Assembly (NCBI GenBank): GCA_963718915.1 | Contig: CAVRAI010000015.1 | Coordinates: forward strand, 960,001-992,000 | DNA length: 32,000 nt | DNA from: an uncultured Chloroflexia bacterium | GTDB lineage: Bacteria > Chloroflexota > Ktedonobacteria > Ktedonobacterales > JADMIN01 | Reading direction: 5' to 3' | Shown here: piece by piece, positions 1,868 to 29,261 of the stretch | Position numbering within the stretch: position 1 is the first letter of the stretch | Layout: each line of letters begins with the position of its first letter | Notes under the pieces: model-generated | The model's input: the letters and a program-made list of their open reading frames with translations, nothing else | What the model was told of the DNA's origin: nothing | Databases searched by the model: none | Program-made: the position numbers and the translations under genes

Positions 1868-2089
1868 CCTCCCCACTGCCCTCCCGCGATCACAACGCCC
1901 GACGGCGCCACGATTGTCGCATTTCCTCATGTCTACAATAGCTGCCAGAGTTGCAAGACACATTTCCCAGAGGCGCTGGCAAGTCTGCCCTGTTTCAGTG
2001 AGCCATGGTATCATACTTGGGCACACTTGTGTGTACTTGATGTGCATCAAATTTGCATCAAATCTATTCGGAAAGGCGCGAGTACACTG

Positions 2090-2539
2090 GTGAGCGACGA
2101 ATCGACGAAAGACGCCGGAACAGGCGAGCGACTGGTGCTGCGCACTGATGGCGCGTCGCGCGGCAACCCTGGGCCAGCAGCTGCCGGGATCGTCATCGAG
2201 CGCGCGGATGGCGCCATCCTCACACAACTCGGGCAGTATCTGGGTGAGATGCCAAACAACCAGGCAGAGTATCGCGCGCTCATTCTGGGGCTGACTATGG
2301 TGACCGGTTATCAGCCCGCTGTGGTGGATATCTACATGGATAGTGAGCTGGTTGTCCGCCAGATGACCGGCGTGTATCGGGTACGCGACGCGACGTTACA
2401 GCAGCTCTATCGAGAAGCAATGGCGCTGGTAGAGGCGCTGCCTCACGTCACCTTCACCCATATACGGCGCGCCCAAAACGCACTGGCAGACCGATTGGCT
2501 AATCAGGCGCTGAACGAGCAAAGACGCGCGCATTATTAG
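2090..2539 (+). CDS. rnhA: Ribonuclease HI family protein
   Basis: LVLRTDGASRGNPGPAAAGIVI...NNQAEYRALILGL...DSELVVRQMTG...RRAQNALADRLAN is the RNase H fold DEDD pattern. The start is uncertain: GTG 2090 is used here, with TTG 2027 or GTG 2042 as in-frame alternatives. Confidence 0.8.
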   Translation: MSDESTKDAGTGERLVLRTDGASRGNPGPAAAGIVIERADGAILTQLGQYLGEMPNNQAEYRALILGLTMVTGYQPAVVDIYMDSELVVRQMTGVYRVRDATLQQLYREAMALVEALPHVTFTHIRRAQNALADRLANQALNEQRRAHY

Positions 2540-5096: not shown

Positions 5097-6497
5097 ATGG
5101 CTGAAGAAGTAGACTACTACGCGGTTCTGGGACTTCCTCCAAGTGCTGACGACGCGACGATCCGGCTGGCCTACCGCCGTCTGGCACGACGCTACCATCC
5201 AGATATTGCCGGAGATGAGAACCTGCATCTGATGCAGACGCTCAATCAGGCGTATCGGACACTGAGCGACCCGGAGCGCCGTCGTCTCTATGACGCCAGC
5301 CGCCCCCCTCCCCTGCCAGTGAGCGACCTAGAGCCGCTCCATACCGCGCCACCGCCACTGGAACGGCCACCGCAACAGGCGCGCCCACCGACACAGACTG
5401 CCCGACGTTCCGAATCGGTGACCGCCAGCATTGGCCCATTACGTCGCCTCGCGGTCTTCAACGATGGCCAGGCGGGCGCCGTCGTCTCGGTCGCACTGGC
5501 GCAGGGTGGCGCGGTGACGGCTGTGGGGCATATTGATGGCCAGATCGCGCTCTGGAACAGCACGCAGGATCGCCCGGTGGCGCGGCTGGCGCTGGGTGCG
5601 CCCGGACAAGCAGGCACGCTGAGCGAGGTGCGTCTCTCGGCTGACGCGGCGCTGGTGATGGCGTGGGGATTCGCGCTGGGCCTCGCCGTCTGGCATGTGG
5701 GCGATGGGGCGCGGCGTTGGTCGAGCCAGATGAATGCGCCGTCGGGTCTGATGGATGCCGTCTTTCTGCCCCATCCCGCGGGACTGCTGCGGCTGGCGCT
5801 GCCCGACGCTCCTCAGGCGCTGGCTGATAGCGATCCGTTTTACTGGGCGGATCGTGGGCGGGGCGGCACTGCCATCTATACCCGACCGCTGCCGGCTAGC
5901 GGGCCGATCCATCCGGGATGGGCCACTCCGCTCTGCTGCTACGAGGATGCGTCTGGTCGACAAAAGCATCCCGAGACGGTTCCCTGGCAGATCAGAGAAC
6001 GGGTACTCTCAGTTGATGGCCGTCGGCTCTTGACGTTTTCGACTGGTCGGCCTGAGGGCAGGCCCCGCTCGCAGATTCTGCGCCTGTGGGATATCGAGGC
6101 GCGCTCGCACCGGGGAACCGTCGAGCCACGGCGCATTGCCGAGGTGATCGAGCCTGACGGCAGATTGCTGTTCCCACTGGCGGCTACGCCCGACCTCGCC
6201 GTCGTTGCCCTGGCGGATTTCCTGGGTCACATGCAGATTCGTTCGCTCGACGGGCGCGTGCGCCGCAGTGTAGCGACTGGCCCTGTGCCGATCGATGCGT
6301 TCGCCGCGTTGACATCAGACGCCGCTTTGCTGGCGCTTGCCCATGGGCAGCGCCTTGACCTCTGGGACACTCGAACCGGCCAGCATCTGCAGAACTGGCA
6401 ACTGACCGCGCCACTCACCGCGCTTTCCTTCGCCCCCGTTGCGCACCCCGTGCTGGCGCTTGGTCTGCCCAATGGGCAGACGGAAATGTGGGGCTAG
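5097..6497 (+). CDS. J-domain (DnaJ-like) protein with Pro-rich linker and C-terminal WD40-like beta-propeller repeats
   Basis: The N-terminus DYYAVLGLPPSADDATIRLAYRRLARRYHPDI...LNQAYRTLSDPERRRLYD is a J domain with HPD. The C-terminal part has recurring hydrophobic-W-D/N motifs (IALWNS, LRLWDIEA, LDLWDTRTGQ, TEMWG). Confidence 0.75.
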   Translation: MAEEVDYYAVLGLPPSADDATIRLAYRRLARRYHPDIAGDENLHLMQTLNQAYRTLSDPERRRLYDASRPPPLPVSDLEPLHTAPPPLERPPQQARPPTQTARRSESVTASIGPLRRLAVFNDGQAGAVVSVALAQGGAVTAVGHIDGQIALWNSTQDRPVARLALGAPGQAGTLSEVRLSADAALVMAWGFALGLAVWHVGDGARRWSSQMNAPSGLMDAVFLPHPAGLLRLALPDAPQALADSDPFYWADRGRGGTAIYTRPLPASGPIHPGWATPLCCYEDASGRQKHPETVPWQIRERVLSVDGRRLLTFSTGRPEGRPRSQILRLWDIEARSHRGTVEPRRIAEVIEPDGRLLFPLAATPDLAVVALADFLGHMQIRSLDGRVRRSVATGPVPIDAFAALTSDAALLALAHGQRLDLWDTRTGQHLQNWQLTAPLTALSFAPVAHPVLALGLPNGQTEMWG

Positions 6498-9687: not shown

Positions 9688-9717
9688 CGTCTATGGTGTG
9701 CTGCGAGGGAGGGAGTC

Positions 9718-10191
9718 ATGCGCCGTCGCTGGCTCAAGATCGGTATCGCCGTCTGCGCGCTTGTGGTCGTTCCTCTTGGTGTTCGTTTCCTCGTCGCCCC
9801 TGTCTTCATCGGCCAACCTGATAGCGTACATATTGTCGTGAGCAGGGTGAACAACTATTCTGATCAACACGGATCGGTCATCTTCGACCACGAGTTTTCG
9901 CAACAGGCAGCACCGGTGTATGCGGAACTGGTTACCGGCGGACCTCTCCCCGACATGCCCGCCTCCTGTCCAATCATCTTAGAAAACCGGCCATACTATC
10001 GTTACGAGTTAACGTTCTTTCGCTGGGACATAGTGACGGCTCAAGCAACGGATGATGCGATTGGCTGTATGTATTTCTCGGTCAAGTATCCACTTGGCGC
10101 CACTGAAGGGTACTCCTGGTATCGGGGCGAAGGTCACCCCACATTCTGGGTGCGTCTCTACGAACTCACCAACACGCCTCAGCCGCAATGA
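9718..10191 (+). CDS. Hypothetical membrane-anchored or secreted protein
   Basis: SD gagggaggg lies upstream of the ATG. The N-terminal hydrophobic segment is WLKIGIAVCALVVVPLGVRFLV. No family was recognised. Confidence 0.6.
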   Translation: MRRRWLKIGIAVCALVVVPLGVRFLVAPVFIGQPDSVHIVVSRVNNYSDQHGSVIFDHEFSQQAAPVYAELVTGGPLPDMPASCPIILENRPYYRYELTFFRWDIVTAQATDDAIGCMYFSVKYPLGATEGYSWYRGEGHPTFWVRLYELTNTPQPQ

Positions 10192-10217
10192 CCCTGGTTA
10201 CCCTGTGAGCTTGCCCG

Positions 10218-10769
10218 CTACGTGCTCGCAGTCGGATTAGCGAGGGAGCCGAACATCTCGCCATCGGGATTGCCGGGATGCGGGCCGACGGTCATCCCCA
10301 CCCGGCGCATGACATTCGCCGAGCGTTCATTCTCGCGGAAGCAGACGCTGGTGATACGCCGCACTTTCAGCGTCTCGAAGGCATAGCGCACCACTGCGTC
10401 AGTCGCCTCCTTCATGATGCCTTTATCCCACCATTCGCGCTTCAAACCATAGAACAGCTCGACCTCCGGTGTGGCTAGAGCGCCCTGATCGAGCAGATAG
10501 AACTGCAATCCAACCATGCCGACGAATGCGCCCGTGGCACGCAACACGATTGCCCACTCACCAAAGCCCTCCCACTCGAACTGCGCGATGCGATACGCAA
10601 AGCGCGGACGCCACTCCTCCAGGGTACGGGCGCGTTTGCCGCCGTCTGGCGCCCTTCCAAACCCCATCATGGGAAAGACATCAGGATGCGACATCATCTC
10701 CACGAAATCGGGCAGGTCATCCGTCTCCAGCGGGCGCAGCGTCAGGCGCGCCGTCTCTAACGTCGTCAT
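10218..10769 (-). CDS. GNAT family N-acetyltransferase (RimJ/RimL-like)
   Basis: MTTLETARLTLRPLETDDLPDFVEMM... is typical of Acetyltransf_3. ATG 10769 is preceded by aaggag. The track start at 10784 is a TTG overlapping the upstream stop. Confidence 0.8.
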   Translation of the reverse strand: MTTLETARLTLRPLETDDLPDFVEMMSHPDVFPMMGFGRAPDGGKRARTLEEWRPRFAYRIAQFEWEGFGEWAIVLRATGAFVGMVGLQFYLLDQGALATPEVELFYGLKREWWDKGIMKEATDAVVRYAFETLKVRRITSVCFRENERSANVMRRVGMTVGPHPGNPDGEMFGSLANPTAST

Positions 10770-10780
10770 GCGGTCTCCTT

Positions 10781-11917
10781 TCAAAACATTTTGGCGAGCG
10801 CCTGGAAGAGGCGATCAACTTCCTCATGCGTGTTGTACAGATGCGGCGAGACACGTATCGCGTTGCCGCGAAAACTGACATAGATGCCCTCCGCCGCGAG
10901 TTGCTTGCTCAGGTCCGGCTGTAATGGGGCGCTGGAGCGCAGGCCAATCAGATGGCCAACACGTCGCTCGCCCGGCACAGGATCGAGGCCAACGCGGCGC
11001 GCGCCCTCTTCGATATGCGCTGTCAGTTCGCGTAGGGTCGCGGCAATCTCCTCAACGCGCCACTCCAGCAGTTGCCGCAGTGACGCGATGGCGATGGGCA
11101 TCAGCGCGAAGTTGGAGCGCTCGCCCATGTCATACCGTCGCGTGCCAGGCTGGAATGTATCACGGTAGTTGACGAGTCCGTTGAAGTCTTCGCTCTGCTC
11201 GCGCGTGATCCAGTTGGATTCCAGCGGCACACCCTCTCGCCAGCGGGGAGCAACATAGACAAAGCCCAGGCTATACGGGCCGAGAAGCCACTTATACGTC
11301 ACGGCGACGAGGAAGTCGGGTTGGATCTCTGCCACCGAGAAGGGATGCGCCCCAACCGATTGCGCGCCATCCACCACCAGCGCCGCGCCGACCGACCGCG
11401 CCCGCTCGCCGATGCGCGCCAGATCGATCAGGCTGCCGTCGGTCCAGTGGCAATGCGGGACGGCTACAATACCAGTGCGCTCGTCGATTTGCGCTAAAAG
11501 AGCCGCCGTCCAGTCGAAGTCGGGCGGTCGCAATACCGTGACGATGGTGGCTCCTGCGCGTGCGGCGAGATCGCGCCAGGGATAGACGTTCGAGGGGAAC
11601 TGGTCTTCCAGTAGCACGATGGTCTGTCCGCTGGCGAGGGGCAGATTTGCCGCCGCAAGGCCGATACCATAGCTGGCAGATGGGATAATCGCCACCCCAT
11701 CTCGGTCGCCGCCGATCAATTCGGCGAAGAGGCCGCGCGCCGTCTCAGACTCGCTAAAGAAGTCCTGAGCTGAGATTTTCCACGGCTCCGACTTGCGCGC
11801 CACCCCAGACTGTCCGGCTTCGCGTGAGGCACGTGGCAGGGGCGACATATACGAACAGTTCAAATAGGCGATTTCATCAGGAATATCGAACAGATTCCGT
11901 TGATTGGCCAGTGTCAC
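10781..11917 (-). CDS. Class V aminotransferase-fold PLP-dependent enzyme
   Basis: 378 aa with a GTG start preceded by aaggag. The segment DGAQSVGAHPFSVAEIQPDFLVAVTYKWLLGPYSLGFVYV holds the PLP-lysine context of cysteine-desulfurase/kynureninase-like class V enzymes. Confidence 0.8.
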   Translation of the reverse strand: MTLANQRNLFDIPDEIAYLNCSYMSPLPRASREAGQSGVARKSEPWKISAQDFFSESETARGLFAELIGGDRDGVAIIPSASYGIGLAAANLPLASGQTIVLLEDQFPSNVYPWRDLAARAGATIVTVLRPPDFDWTAALLAQIDERTGIVAVPHCHWTDGSLIDLARIGERARSVGAALVVDGAQSVGAHPFSVAEIQPDFLVAVTYKWLLGPYSLGFVYVAPRWREGVPLESNWITREQSEDFNGLVNYRDTFQPGTRRYDMGERSNFALMPIAIASLRQLLEWRVEEIAATLRELTAHIEEGARRVGLDPVPGERRVGHLIGLRSSAPLQPDLSKQLAAEGIYVSFRGNAIRVSPHLYNTHEEVDRLFQALAKMF

Positions 11918-12078
11918 AAGCGATCTCCTTTATACCATCGTCCACACGGCTTCCGCAGCGAGGCTCTTGAGCGCCATACCTGGAATTATCGCAAGAAAAC
12001 TGCGCAGTTCGCCACCACCAATTGTGCTATGCTGCGCTGGAATGTCTGGTGGAATGCTATAGACCCTGGGAGAATTCA

Positions 12079-13677
12079 GTGGCAGCGGATGCGCGCAGGA
12101 TAGTCGAGCGAGCAATCACGCGGGCGGCGCAGCGACACGCGCTCTGGACGCCGGGCGCGCGGCTGGTCGTCGCGGTCTCAGGTGGAGCTGATTCGCTGTG
12201 CCTGCTTGGCGCGCTGCTGGCGTTGCGCGACCGTGGGCATCGTCTCGCGCCGGGCGAGATCATCGTGGCGCATTTCGATCACGGGCTGCGGGGCGAAGAA
12301 AGCAGCGCGGACGCACGCTTTGTGCAACAGGTTGCCGCCGAAGTTGGCGCTCCATTCGTTCTTGGACAACCTGACGTCCCATACTCGACCGAACTGCGCG
12401 TCGGGATCGAGGATTGGGCGCGGCGAACGCGCTACGCCTTTCTGCGGCGGGTCGCAGTGGAGTATGAGGCCGAGCGCATCGTGACTGGCCACACGCACGA
12501 TGACCAGGCCGAGACGATTCTGTTGCACTGGCTACGTGGCAGCGGGCTGGCGGGCATGCGGGGCATGGCGCCCCTGCGCGGCGATATCGCGCGTCCGCTG
12601 CTCGACGTGACTCACGCGCAGACGATGGCCTACTGCACCGCGCTTGGGTGGACGCCGCGTGAGGATAGCAGCAACGCCGATCCGCGCTTTTTGCGCAACC
12701 GCATCCGCCACGAACTGCTGCCGCTGCTCGAAACCTACAATCCAGGCATCCGCGAACGCCTGGCGCGCAATGGTGAACTGCTGGCGGAGGATGAAGCGTA
12801 TCTGGAGGCACAGACTCAGGTAGCTTGGGCTGATGTGTCGGAGAGGCCATACCGGGGCGGCGTTCGACTGGACCGGAAGCTGACGCCTGAGCTACCGCCA
12901 GCGTTACGTCACCGGCTCTATCGCGCCGCCGTCCGCACGGTGAGCAATGGCGAAGTCACCCTGGAGGCGCGCCATATCACGGGGCTTGATAGGCAACTGT
13001 TGGATGGACATACGGGTAGCTTCCGGCGTCTTCCCGGAGGAATCAGCGCCATCATGAAGTATGACGCTCTGGTATTCCAGCAAGATGCCGCTTCAACTTC
13101 CGCGCGAGTTGGCTCTGGGCAGTCCGCGAAGGCGGACTTTGTGGCCGCAGGCCCTTCAGGCGCGGTTTCAACCGCCCGCGCTGGAAATCTCCCGCAGGCG
13201 TGGCAGCTTCCCGTGCCGGGCGCCGTCGCGTTGCCGGAGCTTGGCTGGCGCATCCGCGCGTGGCGCATCGAGGGCGCGCCGGGAAGCGAAGATGCCAGTG
13301 GATTGCCGCCCGCGCCCGCACTACCGTCACTCTCGTTTGCTGACCGGCCAGCCGAAATTGGCCGCGCTGAGTCACGTGTCTACCTGGATGCATCGACTAT
13401 CGGCGAAACGCTGACCGTGCGCGCGTGGCAGCCCGGCGACCGCTTCCGTCCGCTAGGCATGCGTGGCGAGAAGAAGCTACAAGACTACTTCAGCGACGCC
13501 AAGGCGCCGCGCGAGCTACGGGGGCGGCTGCCGCTTGTCTTCAACGCCGACCATCTGGTCTGGGTAGCTGGTCTGCGCATCGACGACCGCGTCCGCCTGA
13601 CGCCGACGACGCAGGCGGTGGTTGTGCTTCAATTGGAGCCGCTCACTGCTCCATCACACGGCGAAAGTAGCTGGTAA
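12079..13677 (+). CDS. tilS: tRNA(Ile)-lysidine synthetase
   Basis: The PP-loop LVVAVSGGADSLCL is followed by HFDHGLRGEES and HTHDDQAETILLHWLRGSG. The C-terminal TilS substrate-binding region reads WQPGDRFRPLGM...KKLQDYF. A likely start is GTG 12079 after gggaga, though the ORF is open from TTG 12022. Confidence 0.85.
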   Translation: MAADARRIVERAITRAAQRHALWTPGARLVVAVSGGADSLCLLGALLALRDRGHRLAPGEIIVAHFDHGLRGEESSADARFVQQVAAEVGAPFVLGQPDVPYSTELRVGIEDWARRTRYAFLRRVAVEYEAERIVTGHTHDDQAETILLHWLRGSGLAGMRGMAPLRGDIARPLLDVTHAQTMAYCTALGWTPREDSSNADPRFLRNRIRHELLPLLETYNPGIRERLARNGELLAEDEAYLEAQTQVAWADVSERPYRGGVRLDRKLTPELPPALRHRLYRAAVRTVSNGEVTLEARHITGLDRQLLDGHTGSFRRLPGGISAIMKYDALVFQQDAASTSARVGSGQSAKADFVAAGPSGAVSTARAGNLPQAWQLPVPGAVALPELGWRIRAWRIEGAPGSEDASGLPPAPALPSLSFADRPAEIGRAESRVYLDASTIGETLTVRAWQPGDRFRPLGMRGEKKLQDYFSDAKAPRELRGRLPLVFNADHLVWVAGLRIDDRVRLTPTTQAVVVLQLEPLTAPSHGESSW

Positions 13678-16399: not shown

Positions 16400-16417
16400 C
16401 GGCAGGTGGTTAAGGGC

Positions 16418-16511
16418 AAATTCGCCGTAGCGTGATGAACGTTCACGTTTTCTTCCCACCCCGTCGAGGTGGGGGTGGGGCAGGCCGTAGCATAAACGCT
16501 ACGGCGAATTT
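16418..16511. repeat. Nested inverted-repeat / hairpin cluster
   Basis: aaattcgccgtagcg (16418-16432) is the perfect reverse complement of cgctacggcgaattt (16497-16511). The enclosed sequence holds a 10-bp palindrome tgaacgttca (16436-16445) and a C/G hairpin (cccacc...ggtggg). It also holds a short hairpin gccgtagc-ataaac-gctacggc. Confidence 0.8.
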
Positions 16512-16562
16512 CCGGGGGTCTGCCCAATTCGCCGGGGCCTTCAGGCTCCGGCAGGCTCACCC
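16483..16562 (-). repeat. ~80-bp structured repeat, copy A (inverted relative to copy B at 18811-18892)
   Basis: The reverse complement of this segment aligns to 18811-18892. The first 21 nt gggtgagcc[t/a]gccggagcctg match 20/21. A shared gcgaatt follows, then a variable middle with indels. The last 27 nt attcgccgtagcgttta[t/c]gctacggc match 26/27. Confidence 0.75.
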
Positions 16563-16732
16563 TACTACACGGTTCGGGGTTTATGCGTAACAGTTCATCA
16601 ACCGCCCGCGCTTCTCACCCGTGCGTCTCGCAAACTCCGCGGCACGCGCCAAACAACACCCTTCCCTTCTAGCTGCCGATGGGCTACACTGTGCCTGCAA
16701 GCCATCACGCCGATACGCTGGAGGAAAAGCCG

Positions 16733-18030
16733 ATGACCGCCTATCGCAACGCCTTCGTCAGCCATGCCCATGCCAATAATGCTCAGTGCGATCCCTTTGT
16801 GGCTGCTTTCCAGCGTCGCGGCGTTAGCCTCTACTACGACCGCGCCGACCCACAGGTTGGCCACGACCTTGGCGAAGCATTGGAGCGTGAACTCGAGCGC
16901 GCCACGGCGCTGATCGTCATGGTCACTCCAGCTGCCCTTGCCTCCTTCTGGGTGCGCGAAGAGATCAGCATCTTCTTCGCCCTCATGGCGCGCGATCCCT
17001 CCCGGCTGCTTATCCCGATCAAATTGGAGGCGTGTGAACTGCCGCCACGTCTGGCGGCGCGCTGGTGGGTGGACGCTACAGATCTCGCGCCGAATGATGT
17101 GGTGGATCAGGTAGTTCAGGCGCTTGCAATAGGGGCGCAGGATCCATCTCTCCCGGTATCCTCACCACCGCGTGATACCCTGCCGCCGCTCGGCCCGGCG
17201 CCCGCGCCCGCCAACAGCGCGCCCGCCCACCACCTGACGCCAATGCCGCTCTACACCCTCGGCTTTCGCGGCTACACCATCGCCGGCGTTGAGTGCATCC
17301 TGCCGCCCATCTGCCCCGTGCCTGGCAGCGTCTTCACTATGGGCAGCGACAAGACCCGCGACAAAGAGGCGCGCGACAACGAGACGCCGCAGTATCCGGT
17401 CGAAGTGGACGCCTTCGCTATCGGTCAGCACCCGGTCACCGTCGCCGAGTATGCCTGCGCCGTTCGCGCGAAAGCAGTGCGCGAGCCGCACGACAATGGG
17501 AACATCGATGTAGACTGGGCGAAGCAGCAGACGCATCCTGACCATCCGGTGGTCTGCGTCTCCTGGAACGATGCGCTCGCCTACACGCCTGGCTGGCGAA
17601 GACGACGGGGCAGGGCTGGCGGCTGCCGAGCGAGGCGGAGTGGGAGAAGGCGGCGCGCGGGACAGATGGGCGCATCTATCCCTGGGGCGACGAATTCGAC
17701 AAAGCGCGCTGCAACACCCACGAGAGCGGCATCGGAACGACCACGCCCGTCGGGCGTTATCCCAACGGCGAGAGTCCCTATCATGTCCAGGACATGACGG
17801 GCAACGTCTGGGAGTGGACAAGCAGCCTCTTCCAGCCCTATCCCTACCGCAAAAACGACGGACGAGAGAATCCAAATTCTACTGATAATCGAGTGCTTCG
17901 TGGCGGTTCGTGGTACGGCGGCTCCAGGAACGCGCGCGCGGCCTACCGCCTCGGCGACAGGCCGGACCACTTCTACAACGACGTAGGGTTTCGGCTCGCT
18001 CTGGCGCGTGCGGGGGCTGGTTCAGCATAA
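16733..18030 (+). pseudogene. TIR domain / FGE-sulfatase (C-type-lectin fold) fusion; DGR target gene, interrupted by a 1-nt frameshift near 17588-17590
   Basis: ATG 16733 follows SD ggagga. The TIR-like N-terminus is AFVSHAHANNAQCDPFVAAFQRRGVSLYYD...LIVMVTPAALASFWVREEI, which carries the SxWxxxE motif. The FGE-sulfatase domain follows (PGSVFTMGSDK...ETPQYPVEVDAFAIGQHPVTVAEYA...HPVVCVSWNDALAY). The domain then continues only in the frame offset by 2: WLAKTTGQGWRLPSEAEWEKAARGTDGRIYPWGDEF...MTGNVWEWTSS...[38 protein letters not shown], ending at stop 18028-18030. Confidence 0.85.
17892..18016 (+). repeat. DGR variable repeat (VR) at the 3' end of the TIR/FGE-sulfatase gene
   Basis: This 125-bp segment aligns without gaps to 18370-18494. 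It has 13 mismatches, all opposite adenines of the other copy. It ends in a 31-nt adenine-free G/C-rich block (gggtttcggctcgctctggcgcgtgcggggg), after which the two copies diverge. Confidence 0.9.
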
Positions 18031-18059
18031 TCCTCTGGTTCTGATTTCTGTTTTCCATT

Positions 18060-18065
18060 TATAAT
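18060..18065 (+). promoter_or_regulatory. Candidate -10 box (TATAAT) in the AT-rich spacer upstream of the TR
   Basis: A perfect tataat sits inside a ~70-nt stretch of about 34% GC by my count, in a window of about 60% GC. Only a weak -35 is present (ttctga/ggttct). Confidence 0.3.
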
Positions 18066-18369
18066 AGAATGAACATGATAGTAGAAGTAGAGAGGTGGAA
18101 TGTGTTTCTGGTCGCGCGCAGCGCGGAAAAATTTGGAGAAATCTCACAGCTCGCTATCAGGCGAAAGCCAAGCAATGTATTGCTGGTGGCGTGAACAGGG
18201 ATACCAAAAGCCGCTCTTCAAAGGTATGTTCGTTGCGCATGCGCGCTGTAAAGCCCCGCTAAAGTCCTGCCCATGAACTTGCGGAGCGATCCGCCTCGTC
18301 GTAATGATTGCGGTGAGCGCGCGGGAGGTCGCTCCTCCTTGCGCGCGCTCCGTGGGGCAGACCGAACCC

Positions 18370-18494
18370 AGTGCTTCGTGGCGGTTCGTGGAACAACAAC
18401 TCCAGGAACGCGCGCGCGGCCTACCGCAACGACAACAGGCCGGACAACTTCAACAACAACGAAGGGTTTCGGCTCGCTCTGGCGCGTGCGGGGG
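18370..18494 (+). repeat. DGR template repeat (TR), non-coding, AAC-rich
   Basis: It contains 28 adenines and 10 AAC codons in the VR-equivalent register (aacaacaac, aacgacaac, aacttcaacaacaacgaa). All 97 non-A positions are identical to the VR, while 13 of the 28 A positions differ. The ORFs overlapping it (18273..18572, 18371..18607 and antisense 18218..18565) look like by-products of the repeat. Confidence 0.9.
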
Positions 18495-18705
18495 ATGATC
18501 CAGCGTTTCCGGCCAGTAAATCCGCACGAGTCCCGCTTGCGGGAGATCGACGGACGCGGCCCCATATGCTGAACCAGCGCGGTCTTGTCCCGGCTGAGGC
18601 CAGATGACGCCGTACACGTCCATGTGGCCAGCTAAATATAAAATATGCCTGCCTCCCGCAACCGACTGAAAACGTCGGCAATAACGGCTGTGTGGTGTGT
18701 CACCC

Positions 18706-18735
18706 CTGCCGCGATGCGCGGGGCAGACGCTTTTT
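18706..18735 (+). terminator. Intrinsic-terminator-like hairpin plus T5 run downstream of the TR
   Basis: The stem is ctgccgcg / atg / cgcggggcag, 8 bp with a 2-nt bulge. It is followed after 4 nt by ttttt (18731-18735). Confidence 0.4.
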
Positions 18736-18810
18736 CCTTGTGCGATCCACCTCACCAGGAGTACACCCCGCGCCATCAAAGCGTACCGATTAACTCCGAA
18801 CAGCGTGCTG

Positions 18811-18892
18811 GGGTGAGCCAGCCGGAGCCTGCCAGCGAATTTCCGCCCTCAAGTGACGCTCTGCTCATTCGCCGTAGCGTTTACGCTACGGC
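18811..18892 (+). repeat. ~80-bp structured repeat, copy B (inverted partner of 16483-16562)
   Basis: The sequence is gggtgagccagccggagcctg...gcgaattt...cattcgccgtagcgtttacgctacggc. It contains the internal hairpin gccgtagc-gtttac-gctacggc and the gcgaat/attcgc arms. Confidence 0.75.
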
Positions 18893-18989
18893 TTGCCGCG
18901 CCCGCCACGGCGCATGGTGTTCGGAATAAAACGCCCGCGCTCCTACAACCGCCCGCCCCCGCTCGCCATCACGACGCCTCTGCGTCCCC

Positions 18990-19493
18990 TCACACGATAT
19001 CGGCGTCGCCAGTCAGCACGCGCTCGCCGCGCTGATTCTCGATCCACACATCGGCCTGTCGCGGCTTGTCCGGCTCGGCTGCTCGCAGCACTCCCTTGCA
19101 CGTGAGCGTATCGCCTGGACGCACCATCGCCTGGAAGCGCACCCGCAGCCTCCCCAGCCGTCCGTGGCCTGGAGCGGCTGTGAGCCAGTCGGTCAGCGCC
19201 TGCCCCGCGAACGCCATACTGAGCATGCCGTGGGCAATCGTACCGTCGAGGCCAACCGAACGCGCAACATCAGGGTTGATGTGGATGGGGTTGTGATCGC
19301 CGCTGACATCGGCATAGGCGTCAATCTGCGCCTGCGTCACCGTCTTGATCAGCGCTGGTAATGGCTCGCCCTCGCGCTCCTTCGCCGGTTTGCTGGCTGC
19401 GGTTGCGGTCGCGGCGGTTTCCCCGGCACGATGTCGCGCACGATGATCGTCGCCTTCCCCGTGACCGCGCGCTCGCCCGTGGCGGTATCGCAT
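18990..19493 (-). CDS. MaoC-like (R)-specific enoyl-CoA hydratase / dehydratase hotdog domain
   Basis: VTQAQIDAYADVSGDHNPIHINPDVARSVGLDGTIAHGMLSMAF is the MaoC dehydratase signature. The only in-frame start (ATG 19493) gives an odd Arg/His-rich N-terminus that overlaps the upstream gene by 145 nt, so the true 5' end is doubtful. Confidence 0.7.
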   Translation of the reverse strand: MRYRHGRARGHGEGDDHRARHRAGETAATATAASKPAKEREGEPLPALIKTVTQAQIDAYADVSGDHNPIHINPDVARSVGLDGTIAHGMLSMAFAGQALTDWLTAAPGHGRLGRLRVRFQAMVRPGDTLTCKGVLRAAEPDKPRQADVWIENQRGERVLTGDADIV

Positions 19494-27839: not shown

Positions 27840-28508
27840 ATGTCTACGACGCGGCTACATTTCATTCGCCACGGCGAATCGTACTCCAATGTGCCGCACG
27901 AAGGCAGAGTCGTCTCGGGCATGCACGGCGATAAGGGGCTGACACCTCACGGCGTTGCCCAGGTGGAGCGGCTGCGCGACCGGCTGCTGGCGACGGATGA
28001 GCTTGCCGCCGATGTTGTGTTGGCGAGCACATTGCCGCGCGCCGGGCAGACCGCCGAGATTCTCGCGCCCGTCTGGGACTCGCCTATCCTCTCCGACGAC
28101 GACTTGCACGAGCTACGTCCCGGCGAGTCGGATGGCCTGCCGGTCGCGGTGGCCCGCGAGCGCTATGGCTATACCGACTTTGCGGAGTGGGCCTATCGCC
28201 CAAAGTCGCCCGGAGGCGAGACCTGGGGCATGTTCGTTTTGCGCGTTGGCACGATGCTCGACCGCGTTACGCGCGACTACGCGGGCAAGACCATCGTGCT
28301 TATCACCTCCGGCGGCGTCATTCATGCGACGTTTCTCGTCTTCTTCGCCCTGCCATCGCTTCAGCCGCCACATGCATGGTTCGCCACCGAAAATGCCAGT
28401 ATCACCAGCTGGGAGCAACGTCCCTGGCGCAATCAGCCGTCCGTCTGGACGCTGCTGCGTTATAATGACACGTCGCACCTGAACGATCAGCAGCGGTATA
28501 TGACATGA
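27840..28508 (+). CDS. Histidine phosphatase (phosphoglycerate mutase) family protein, paralog 1
   Basis: LHFIRHGESYSN carries the RHG catalytic motif. Other family segments are GLTPHGVAQVERLRDRL, ASTLPRAGQTAEIL and TSGGVIHA. Confidence 0.85.
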   Translation: MSTTRLHFIRHGESYSNVPHEGRVVSGMHGDKGLTPHGVAQVERLRDRLLATDELAADVVLASTLPRAGQTAEILAPVWDSPILSDDDLHELRPGESDGLPVAVARERYGYTDFAEWAYRPKSPGGETWGMFVLRVGTMLDRVTRDYAGKTIVLITSGGVIHATFLVFFALPSLQPPHAWFATENASITSWEQRPWRNQPSVWTLLRYNDTSHLNDQQRYMT

Positions 28509-28529: not shown

Positions 28530-29261
28530 ATGACGCATCTTTACCTCATTCGCCACGGCGAGGCATACTCCAACATCGAGCTTGATGGCAACGGCACGGT
28601 GCCAGGGCTGCGCGGCGACAAAGGGCTAACCCCACGCGGACGTGCCCAGGCAGAGCGCTTGCGCGACCGGTTGGCCCGCAGCGGCGAGATTCGTGCCAAT
28701 GCGCTACTCGCCAGCACTCTCCCCCGCGCCTGGCAGACCGCCGAGATCATCGCTCCCGCGTTTGGTCTGCCGATCATTCCCGACGACGACCTGCAAGAGA
28801 TGCGCGCGGGCGATGAGGTCGATGGCATGACCGAGCGCGACCTGTTGGAACGCTATACGATCCCCGACTACCGGGAGACGCCCTATGCGCACATTGCTCC
28901 CGACGGCGAGAACTGGGGTGAGTTCATCCTGCGGGTTGGCACGATGTTCGACCGGGTGACGCGCGCATACGCCGACCAGACAGTGGCGCTGGTGACGCAC
29001 GGTGGAGTCATTGACGCCTCGATCATGATCTTCTTCCAGATCCATACGCTTACGGTGCCGCCGTTTGCGCTCTACACGCACAACACCGCGATTACTGAGT
29101 GGGAGTTGGAGCAAAGCGATGGCTTTCGCGAGCGAGCGACCGGGCCGTCTCGCTGGCGGCTGGTACACTACAACGACGACTACCACATCCGCGAGATACC
29201 CGACCATGCTGAGTCGTCTCCGCACTCCGCTGCGGAGGCGATGGAAGGCGGCGATTCCTGA
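28530..29261 (+). CDS. Histidine phosphatase (phosphoglycerate mutase) family protein, paralog 2
   Basis: LYLIRHGEAYSN, GLTPRGRAQAERLRDRL, ASTLPRAWQTAEII and THGGVIDA are collinear with the upstream paralog. Confidence 0.85.
   Translation: MTHLYLIRHGEAYSNIELDGNGTVPGLRGDKGLTPRGRAQAERLRDRLARSGEIRANALLASTLPRAWQTAEIIAPAFGLPIIPDDDLQEMRAGDEVDGMTERDLLERYTIPDYRETPYAHIAPDGENWGEFILRVGTMFDRVTRAYADQTVALVTHGGVIDASIMIFFQIHTLTVPPFALYTHNTAITEWELEQSDGFRERATGPSRWRLVHYNDDYHIREIPDHAESSPHSAAEAMEGGDS

Follow-up and report, generated by a model that had tools for sequence, protein, structure and literature searches.

A TIR domain fused to a DGR-diversified lectin fold in Ktedonobacterales: a candidate clustering-activated receptor family with a decaying or non-autonomous copy

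The window analysed here is a 32,000-nucleotide (nt) stretch of contig CAVRAI010000015.1, from an uncultured bacterium of the Ktedonobacterales. Its central element is the target gene of a diversity-generating retroelement (DGR), which encodes an N-terminal TIR domain joined to a CLec (C-type lectin) domain of the formylglycine-generating enzyme (FGE) fold (Table 1). Both the list of open reading frames (ORFs) and the three-frame translation spread this gene over two frames: frame 0 (16679/16733..17797) opens at ATG 16733 and meets a stop at 17797, and frame 2 (..18030) carries the remainder to the stop at 18028-18030. The DNA alignment with two intact homologues, from the related loci L003 and L001, places a 1-nt gap at about 17588, where the window reads GCCTACA-CGCCTGG and L003 reads GCCTATTGCGCCTGG. 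In public databases the gene is represented by its truncated product of 354 amino acids (aa) (P0005), on a contig of 1,044,980 bp. We set the start at ATG 16733, with a GGAGG at 16720-16724 upstream of it and with the N-termini of the homologues in agreement. The upstream ATG 16679 was rejected as a start; it sits within a conserved non-coding motif, GATG..TACACTG.

Table 1. Coordinates of the TIR-CLec target, its repeats and flanking features in the window
Feature	Position	Strand	Basis or remark
Inverted repeat, left arm (imperfect, ~150 nt)	16445-16590	+	core GCCGTAGCATAAACGCTACGGCGAAT at 16484-16509
Conserved 5' leader of the target gene	16661-16732	+	homology to L003, L001, L015 and L016 starts at 16661
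DGR target gene TIR-CLec	16733-18030	+	432 aa after repair of a 1-nt deletion near 17588
TIR domain, aa 6-131	16748-17125	+	Pfam TIR_2, PDB profile matches, Foldseek, E77 invariance
Pro/Ala-rich linker, low confidence, aa ~132-150	17126-17182	+	predicted local distance difference test (pLDDT) score ~60, <50 at residues 135-140
FGE-sulfatase/CLec-fold domain with N-terminal extension, aa ~151-432	17183-18027	+	Pfam, Foldseek
Frameshift site, 1 nt absent relative to intact homologues	17586-17590	+	DNA alignment with L003 and L001
Variable region (VR), aa ~388-432	17892-18026	+	repeat D1; 15 adenine-specific differences from the template repeat
Non-homologous DNA, 277 bp, 51% GC	18050-18326	.	blastn alignment gap against L003; GC values
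Template repeat (TR) with 5' flank: flank of 38 nt (18327-18364), TR (18365-18504), rich in AAC codons	18327-18504	+	repeat and L003 alignment
Conserved non-coding region after the TR, predicted structured	18505-18745	+	L003 identity, four-cassette alignment, RNAalifold
Inverted repeat, right arm	18784-18935	-	core at 18867-18892, minus strand

Sequence and structure comparisons both recognise the N-terminal part of the repaired protein as a TIR domain. Pfam TIR_2 matched aa 8-118 with 68.1 bits (E 1.3e-18), and a profile of the region compared with PDB sequences retrieved AbTir, PdTIR, Cat1 and TcpB/BtpA at E values from 2e-14 to 1e-10, with SARM1 and plant TIRs following at lower scores. The AlphaFold model of aa 1-130 alone reached a pLDDT of 90.8, and the top 50 PDB structures returned by Foldseek for this model were nearly all TIR domains, with template modelling (TM) scores up to ~0.8 (AbTir, SPARTA TIR, SARM1). 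The candidate catalytic residue, Glu77 (codon gag, 16961-16963), lies within S71-x-W73-V74-x-x-E77 (W73-V-R-E-E77); in the profile alignments it pairs with the glutamate of the W-x-x-x-E motif of AbTir (..DWTNYEL..), and the SARM1 match covers the corresponding region. Across 83 homologues Glu77 is invariant, as are F8, G30 and V74, and S10, H11, H13, W34, D36, G43 and S71 are each conserved in at least 90% of these family members. Judged by these comparisons, the domain is a bacterial TIR of the AbTir/TcpB-like type with its catalytic-type glutamate intact, and the protein is a candidate for NAD+ cleavage.

The rest of the protein belongs to the FGE fold. The AlphaFold2 model of the whole protein, built with the 83-sequence alignment, reached a pLDDT of 92.4, and the poorly defined stretch is limited to residues ~135-150; the conserved residues 150-195 are placed by the model, with good confidence, in an N-terminal extension of the FGE fold. 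Pfam FGE-sulfatase matched aa 195-423 with 180.5 bits (E 6e-53), and Foldseek of the whole model against the PDB returned FGE-fold proteins including FGE, ToxD, PvdO and TvpA (2y3c, E 1.9e-14). Between the TIR and FGE matches, where the gap is only about 70 residues, Pfam gave no match of any kind, NTPases included. Neither a membrane segment nor a signal peptide was found (the maximum Kyte-Doolittle value, 1.54, falls within a TIR strand), and the protein is predicted to be soluble and cytoplasmic.

At its 3' end the gene carries one copy of a 140-nt direct repeat (17887-18026), and the second copy lies downstream at 18365-18504. The comparison of VR 17892-18026 with TR 18370-18504 gives 16 mismatches, 15 of them at TR adenines, and all 15 fall at codon position 1 or 2 of AAC, GAC or GAA codons. 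With adenine accounting for 33 of the 140 TR bases, we calculate the chance of 15 in 16 at about 4e-10. This is a genuine DGR pair. The residues affected are Y395, G396 and G397, then L407, G408 and D409, and finally H413, Y415, N416, D417 and V418. The same positions stand out in the family: among the 83 members, mean entropy reaches 3.4 bits in the eleven columns that correspond to TR-adenine codons, compared with 1.24 in the rest of the FGE domain and 1.29 in the non-adenine columns of the VR, so that DGR mutagenesis has shaped the family as a whole.

An earlier note, made from the letters of this DNA, had proposed an N-terminal TIR domain with an NADase-type motif ending in Glu77, a Pro/Ala-rich linker, a complete FGE/CLec domain closing in the VR, no intervening NTPase, and a list of variable residues (Y,G,G / L,G,D / H,Y,N,D,V). 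The analyses of the frame-corrected protein bear this reading out down to the position of the Glu77 codon: Pfam matches both TIR_2 and FGE-sulfatase, and structure prediction gives a TIR fold for the N-terminal model and an FGE fold for the whole protein. The domain order also stands, with a correction to its middle part; the linker is confined to aa ~132-150, and the residues that follow it are the FGE extension.

Two further genes of a DGR cassette are missing from the window. Large ORFs gave no RVT_1 match in Pfam, and tblastn with the reverse transcriptase (RT) of L003 gave no match over the whole 32 kb; likewise, no Avd appeared in the window by tblastn with the bAvd of locus L032, nor in the Pfam scans of large ORFs. 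An RVT_3 match in ORF 2027-2539 (+) was considered as the missing RT and rejected, being an RNase H-type domain (also matched by Pfam RNase_H). What has been lost is best seen against the closest complete cassette, L003, in a Ktedonobacterales metagenome-assembled genome (MAG), GCA_036557205.1, which has target (10001-11314), RT (11400-12512), Avd remnant (12511-12833) and TR (12985-13109) in that order. By blastn, the window matches L003 at 82.5% over 16661-18049 and at 84.3% over 18327-18738. In between, 1,623 bp of L003, holding RT and Avd, correspond to the window's 277 bp of unrelated DNA, whose GC content contrasts with the 64% of the target gene. On this alignment the loss of RT and Avd is structural and real, and it left in place the TR together with 38 nt of flank on its 5' side and roughly 240 nt beyond it.

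The retained sequence past the TR is 90% identical to L003, above the value for the coding region, and it aligns across four cassettes (window 18505-18745, L003 13105-13343, L021 ~11180-11400 and L032 ~9700-9920) whose RTs are just ~65-67% identical to that of L003. For these four cassettes RNAalifold predicted 58 base pairs, 15 of them with compensatory changes. In this clade's DGR RNA, the segment is probably the structured 3' portion, and related cassettes have the order target, RT, Avd, TR and a structured RNA of about 240 nt.

Two related loci show other arrangements. In L015 (9296-9393), the VR is directly followed by sequence that matches, at 82%, the segment behind the TR of the window, with no separate TR or RT nearby; the TIR domain of this MAG is the closest to the window's, with 93% identity. 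Such a layout would be expected of the remnant of a VR/TR recombination that deleted the intervening genes. The closest intact homologue of the target, at 83% identity, lies in L001 (10001-11305), which shares the neighbourhood of L003 (10001-13343), with an MFS transporter upstream and a DUF1501 gene downstream. Unlike L003, the L001 locus has no RT, Avd or TR. It follows that the loss, or gain, of the DGR parts took place independently at these orthologous sites.

TIR-CLec proteins form a family of restricted distribution. A search of 5.8 billion proteins returned more than 100 clusters of ~430-aa proteins combining TIR_2 and FGE-sulfatase, at 45-83% identity, and all clusters that carry a taxon name belong to Ktedonobacterales or Ktedonobacteraceae. 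Scanning species-representative genomes with the full-length set A4, we found 26 loci, all but one weak match in Ktedonobacterales or 'Chloroflexia' MAGs, with 2-5 TIR-FGE paralogues per genome. The metagenome scan gave 10 loci, mostly on short contigs, none with RT or Avd. Tandem TIR-FGE genes, or a TIR-FGE gene with a second TIR gene, were seen in L010 (8001-9245 and 9460-10737) and L007 (10534-10848).

The link between this family and DGRs is clearest from the side of the RT. All seven RTs sampled from the clade are directly preceded by a TIR-(TPR)-FGE target, and none of these targets contains an NTPase (Table 2). Avd was recognised by tblastn with the L032 bAvd in L003, L021 and L032, and it is annotated in L043, L044, L045 and the JGI contig.

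Table 2. Targets and DGR components of the seven RT-bearing cassettes sampled from the clade
Locus	Target	RT and Avd
L003	TIR-FGE, 437 aa	RT; remnant of Avd (tblastn)
L021	TIR-FGE, with a frameshift in the assembly	RT, also frameshifted; Avd (tblastn)
L032	TIR-TPR-FGE, 824 aa	RT-bAvd
JGI 3300045391	TIR-FGE, 671 aa	RT-bAvd
L043	TIR-FGE, 699 aa	RT-bAvd
L044	TIR-TPR and FGE, called as two genes	RT-bAvd
L045	TIR-TPR-FGE, 637 aa	RT-bAvd

The TIR module itself, recognisable by FVSHAHxDN...WYD...SFWVxxE, is also fused to other C-terminal domains in these bacteria. L017 (8001-9527) combines it with a predicted membrane anchor and a WD40 propeller, L029 (7980-9686) with a membrane anchor and a PQQ-type propeller, and L020, L022, L023 and L024 with right-handed beta-helix repeats. 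The TIR would thus appear to be a portable N-terminal output module placed on varied binding domains, which fits an output-plus-sensor design. In the anchored forms, L017 and L029, the TIR would be cytoplasmic and the repeat domain outward, in a layout like that of Toll-like receptors.

Taken globally, these observations are best explained by a family of TIR-CLec receptors activated by clustering, of which the window holds a decaying or non-autonomous copy; we hold this explanation with moderate confidence. Mechanistically, adenine-specific mutagenic retrohoming would rewrite 11 codons on a surface of the lectin fold, and the hypervariable CLec face would bind a ligand inside the cell, the likeliest being an invader's protein that is oligomeric or multivalent. 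Clustering by this ligand would bring the TIR domains into head-to-tail assemblies, and the ensuing cleavage of NAD+ would cause growth arrest or abortive infection, or produce a cyclic ADP-ribose (cADPR)-type signal. The TIR would in this way be activated without an NTPase switch. In TvpA and Mtd, the VR forms the binding surface. To our knowledge, every TIR NADase yet characterised (SARM1, AbTir, plant TNLs, SPARTA, TIR-SAVED and Cat1) is active only on ordered self-association, and the simplest model is therefore one in which a multivalent ligand clusters the receptor and turns NAD+ cleavage on. We infer the NADase activity, the activation by clustering, the cytoplasmic ligand and the immune role alike.

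The earlier note had also suggested that the protein is a DGR-diversified receptor whose specificity is reprogrammed. For the family this is upheld by the hypervariable columns and by TIR-CLec homologues that do sit beside DGR RTs; for the locus itself it is not, with RT and Avd gone and the target reading frameshifted. Because 277 bp of unrelated DNA stand in for RT and Avd and the target reads as frameshifted, we take the window unit to be a decaying, at best non-autonomous, DGR, whose VR would be a record of past diversification. As a reprogrammable receptor, the window copy would at best depend on an RT elsewhere, and it may be dead.

Several points weigh against the clustering-receptor explanation. 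Seen from the targets, the linkage to DGRs is sparse: only 2 of the 16 TIR-FGE loci in representative genomes have an RT within 8 kb (L006, which is L003, and L021), so most copies either are targets at a distance or have ceased to be diversified. Where a genome does hold an RT, its paralogues do not match its own TR. We tried the solo paralogues of DATBIB01 and CP126532 as remote targets of their own genome's TR, and this is unsupported, with many non-adenine differences or no match at all. PADLOC gave only weak, TIR-level matches, to ThsB (E about 5e-5) and SAVED-TIR, and the protein is accordingly assigned to no known defence system. No partner effector or known defence gene lies near the target in the window, and the Pfam scans revealed no ThsA, SIR2 or SLOG gene there. 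As for the proposed chemistry, a conserved glutamate would be necessary and not sufficient for NAD+ cleavage, and a monomeric lectin fold must somehow drive the oligomerisation of the TIR without an NTPase. Finally, 'decaying' may overstate the case for the window copy, since its frameshift is possibly artefactual, as two further sets of frameshifts indicate.

The first of these sets concerns a second TIR-FGE paralogue on the same contig (P0087), which is apparently shifted by +1 after ..WLAKT, in the same G-rich stretch and about 25 nt past the position that corresponds to the window's site; the putative inserted base is a reconstruction from the protein reading. Two frameshifts so placed point to an assembly artefact or a mutational hotspot over two independent random lesions. 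The second set comes from long-contig MAGs with MFD isolate names (L015, L016, L019, L021, L026 and L030), whose loci are frameshifted at many differing places, as expected of error-prone assemblies. The window's own frameshift may likewise be an assembly error. On this evidence, the unit could be a live, non-autonomous module of target, TR and RNA, served in trans by an RT and Avd from elsewhere in the genome, its frameshift being an error of sequencing or assembly; we consider this possible, on balance doubtful. It would account for a deletion that took two protein-coding genes and spared the TR, its 38-nt 5' flank and the predicted structured 3' RNA, the last of which is better conserved than the coding sequence. 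It also fits the remainder of the target ORF, which is free of stops or other frameshifts, and the other genes of the window, which look intact. On the other hand, no RT of the clade lies on the window's contig among the best 120 RT relatives (other contigs and a frameshifted RT were outside the scope of this search), the deletion site is not homopolymeric, and no example was found in the family of a trans-acting RT that uses a separate TR.

More tentatively still, the observations can be extended to a general proposal for the clade. Ktedonobacterales would harbour a DGR clade with only NTPase-free TIR-(TPR)-CLec targets, in which the capture of a ligand switches the TIR NADase, and RT-less modules such as that of the window would persist as non-autonomous satellites reprogrammed in trans. 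On this proposal, the TIR-CLec protein would be the simplest case known in prokaryotes of a variable receptor joined to an enzyme of death or signalling.

The output of the TIR is the next point on which readings diverge. Rather than a self-contained depleter of NAD, the domain could be a maker of a nucleotide signal for a separate effector, in the manner of ThsB, or an adaptor or scaffold. This is unlikely in our view, even though the Pfam ThsB_TIR cut-off is marginally passed (21.7 against 21.2 bits) and the weak PADLOC matches to ThsB and SAVED-TIR point in the same direction. The closest relatives of solved structure, AbTir, TcpB and PdTIR, produce cADPR isomers or act as adaptors, which also favours it. 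Against it, no conserved ThsA-like, SLOG, SIR2 or other effector gene lies beside the cassettes of the window, L003, L032, L043, L044 or L045, and the invariant glutamate speaks against a purely structural role.

A less probable alternative, which we consider quite unlikely, gives the system no antiviral role at all and places it in self/non-self or developmental signalling in the filamentous, multicellular Ktedonobacteria, as in kin recognition or in programmed cell death as cells differentiate. The several paralogues per genome and the housekeeping surroundings, with no defence island, agree with such a role, as do the enrichment of DGRs of this kind in multicellular bacteria (PMC10907252) and the interpretation of cyanobacterial DGR targets as regulatory (PMC7517822). 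A hypervariable binding surface, however, suits an arms race more than a fixed developmental ligand, and a protein predicted to be cytoplasmic, with no export signal, makes cell-cell recognition unlikely.

Where relatives are not annotated as hypothetical protein, their public names imply yet another role: 'SUMF1/EgtB/PvdO family nonheme iron enzyme' or 'formylglycine-generating enzyme'. The NCBIfam equivalogs EgtB, SenA and PvdO scored far under their cut-offs (EgtB 112 against 360; PvdO 83 against 500), and the EgtB match is confined to the FGE-like C-terminal part, at profile positions 268-413. The two active-site cysteines of FGE are situated in its C-terminal region, and the last 48 residues of the window protein (aa 385-432) contain no cysteine, so this pair is absent. 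For both reasons, the enzyme names are very probably wrong. The strong FGE-sulfatase match and the likeness of the fold to FGE, EgtB and PvdO notwithstanding, an enzyme of this family is effectively excluded by these scores, by a C-terminal region that is a cysteine-free, hypervariable DGR target and by the TIR domain in the place where EgtB has its metal-binding domain, N-terminal to the FGE-like part.

Around the target, the window holds genes of other kinds. Pfam identifies, among the large ORFs, an ECF sigma/anti-sigma pair, MaoC dehydratases, a PMT_2 glycosyltransferase, Pth, Mfd and TilS. The sigma/anti-sigma pair, which lies upstream, was rejected as part of the system; cassette neighbourhoods differ in L003, L001 and L005. 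Two adjacent His_Phos_1 paralogues at 27840-28508 and 28530-29261 (+) contain 59-65-nt direct repeats at 71-77% identity, a tandem duplication. The ORF at 5097-6497 (+) has the unusual combination of an N-terminal DnaJ domain and weak WD40/beta-propeller matches.

In the leader of the target gene, TACACT at 16685-16690 resembles a -10-type element and may be part of a promoter, and GGAGG is the ribosome-binding site. The motif GATG(n)TACACTG (16679-16692 in the window) lies about 45-55 nt before the TIR-FGE start codons of many paralogues and is then followed by GGAGG (alignment A8). The scan for consensus promoters and terminators made no call, including at the TACACT motif, and Rfam found no match in 16400-19100. 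The target-TR cassette is bracketed by the inverted repeat of Table 1, whose core, GCCGTAGCRTAAACGCTACGGCGAAT, forms a hairpin by itself; the window holds only two copies, and none was found in the 45 related loci examined.

Among proteins of solved structure, AbTir, PdTIR, BtpA/TcpB and the CRISPR-associated Cat1 are the best profile matches and share with the window protein both their fold and the W-x-x-x-E motif. In these proteins the TIR is paired with coiled coils or a CARF-type sensor, and not one of them carries a lectin fold or is a DGR target. TvpA (Treponema denticola variable protein 1) has the same FGE-type CLec fold, an N-terminal beta extension and a DGR VR at its C-terminus, but it is a lipoprotein that is exported and lacks any output domain, TIR included, whereas the window protein has a TIR and a predicted cytoplasmic location. 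From Thoeris the TIR-CLec protein differs by its merely marginal ThsB_TIR match and by a window with no ThsA-type effector.

The general idea of DGR-diversified CLec sensors that involve TIR domains is already published. FGE/CLec domains diversified by DGRs have been described on modules of conflict systems in cyanobacteria, purple sulfur bacteria and others, and TIR is among the domains associated with them (PMC7159879, PMC7517822, PMC10907252); the DGR2 target of Thiohalocapsa PB-PSB1 combines CHAT, TIR and CLec. These systems resemble the present one in their C-terminal FGE-type CLec domain with a VR, in its fusion to conflict domains, some of them TIR, in the sensor role proposed for it, in the several DGRs or paralogues per genome and in their multicellular hosts. 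They differ in belonging to ternary systems of the STAND-NTPase or MoxR-vWA kind, which include peptidases and adaptor domains, whereas neither the TIR-CLec target gene nor its surroundings contain an NTPase, vWA, MoxR or peptidase. Ktedonobacterales go unmentioned in the work on those systems. Cyanobacterial variable proteins are likewise multidomain, have TIR-like domains among their rarer N-terminal parts and include remote variable proteins with no adjoining RT; on the other hand, they belong to another phylum, are dominated by kinases and orthocaspases, are read as regulatory tuning and include no dedicated TIR-CLec clade (PMC7517822). FGE-sulfatase-like sensors on STAND (Avs-type) NTPases were reported in 2026 (PMC13581612). 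Those receptors also place an FGE-like sensor at the C-terminus of an intracellular effector-sensor protein, but they have a central, oligomerising STAND NTPase and come with no mention of DGRs; TIR-CLec proteins are free of NTPase and diversified by a DGR, and their longer relatives have TPR repeats, not a STAND NTPase, between the two domains. In the literature covered, which is incomplete, we found neither an NTPase-free two-domain TIR-CLec protein nor its RT clade nor DGRs of Ktedonobacterales, and we regard the NTPase-free two-domain form as new.

The window copy is of worth because it illustrates DGR decay, or perhaps dependence in trans; it is not a working system. The value of the family is of another kind. 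The cellular DGR target candidates published so far are conflict systems of many proteins, large and difficult to reconstitute, and a soluble protein of ~430 aa with an assayable output, the putative cleavage of NAD+, and a variable surface of 11 codons would be far easier to work with. Such a protein could reveal whether lectin folds diversified by a DGR are programmable intracellular sensors, and whether clustering by a ligand is enough to activate a TIR when no NTPase takes part.

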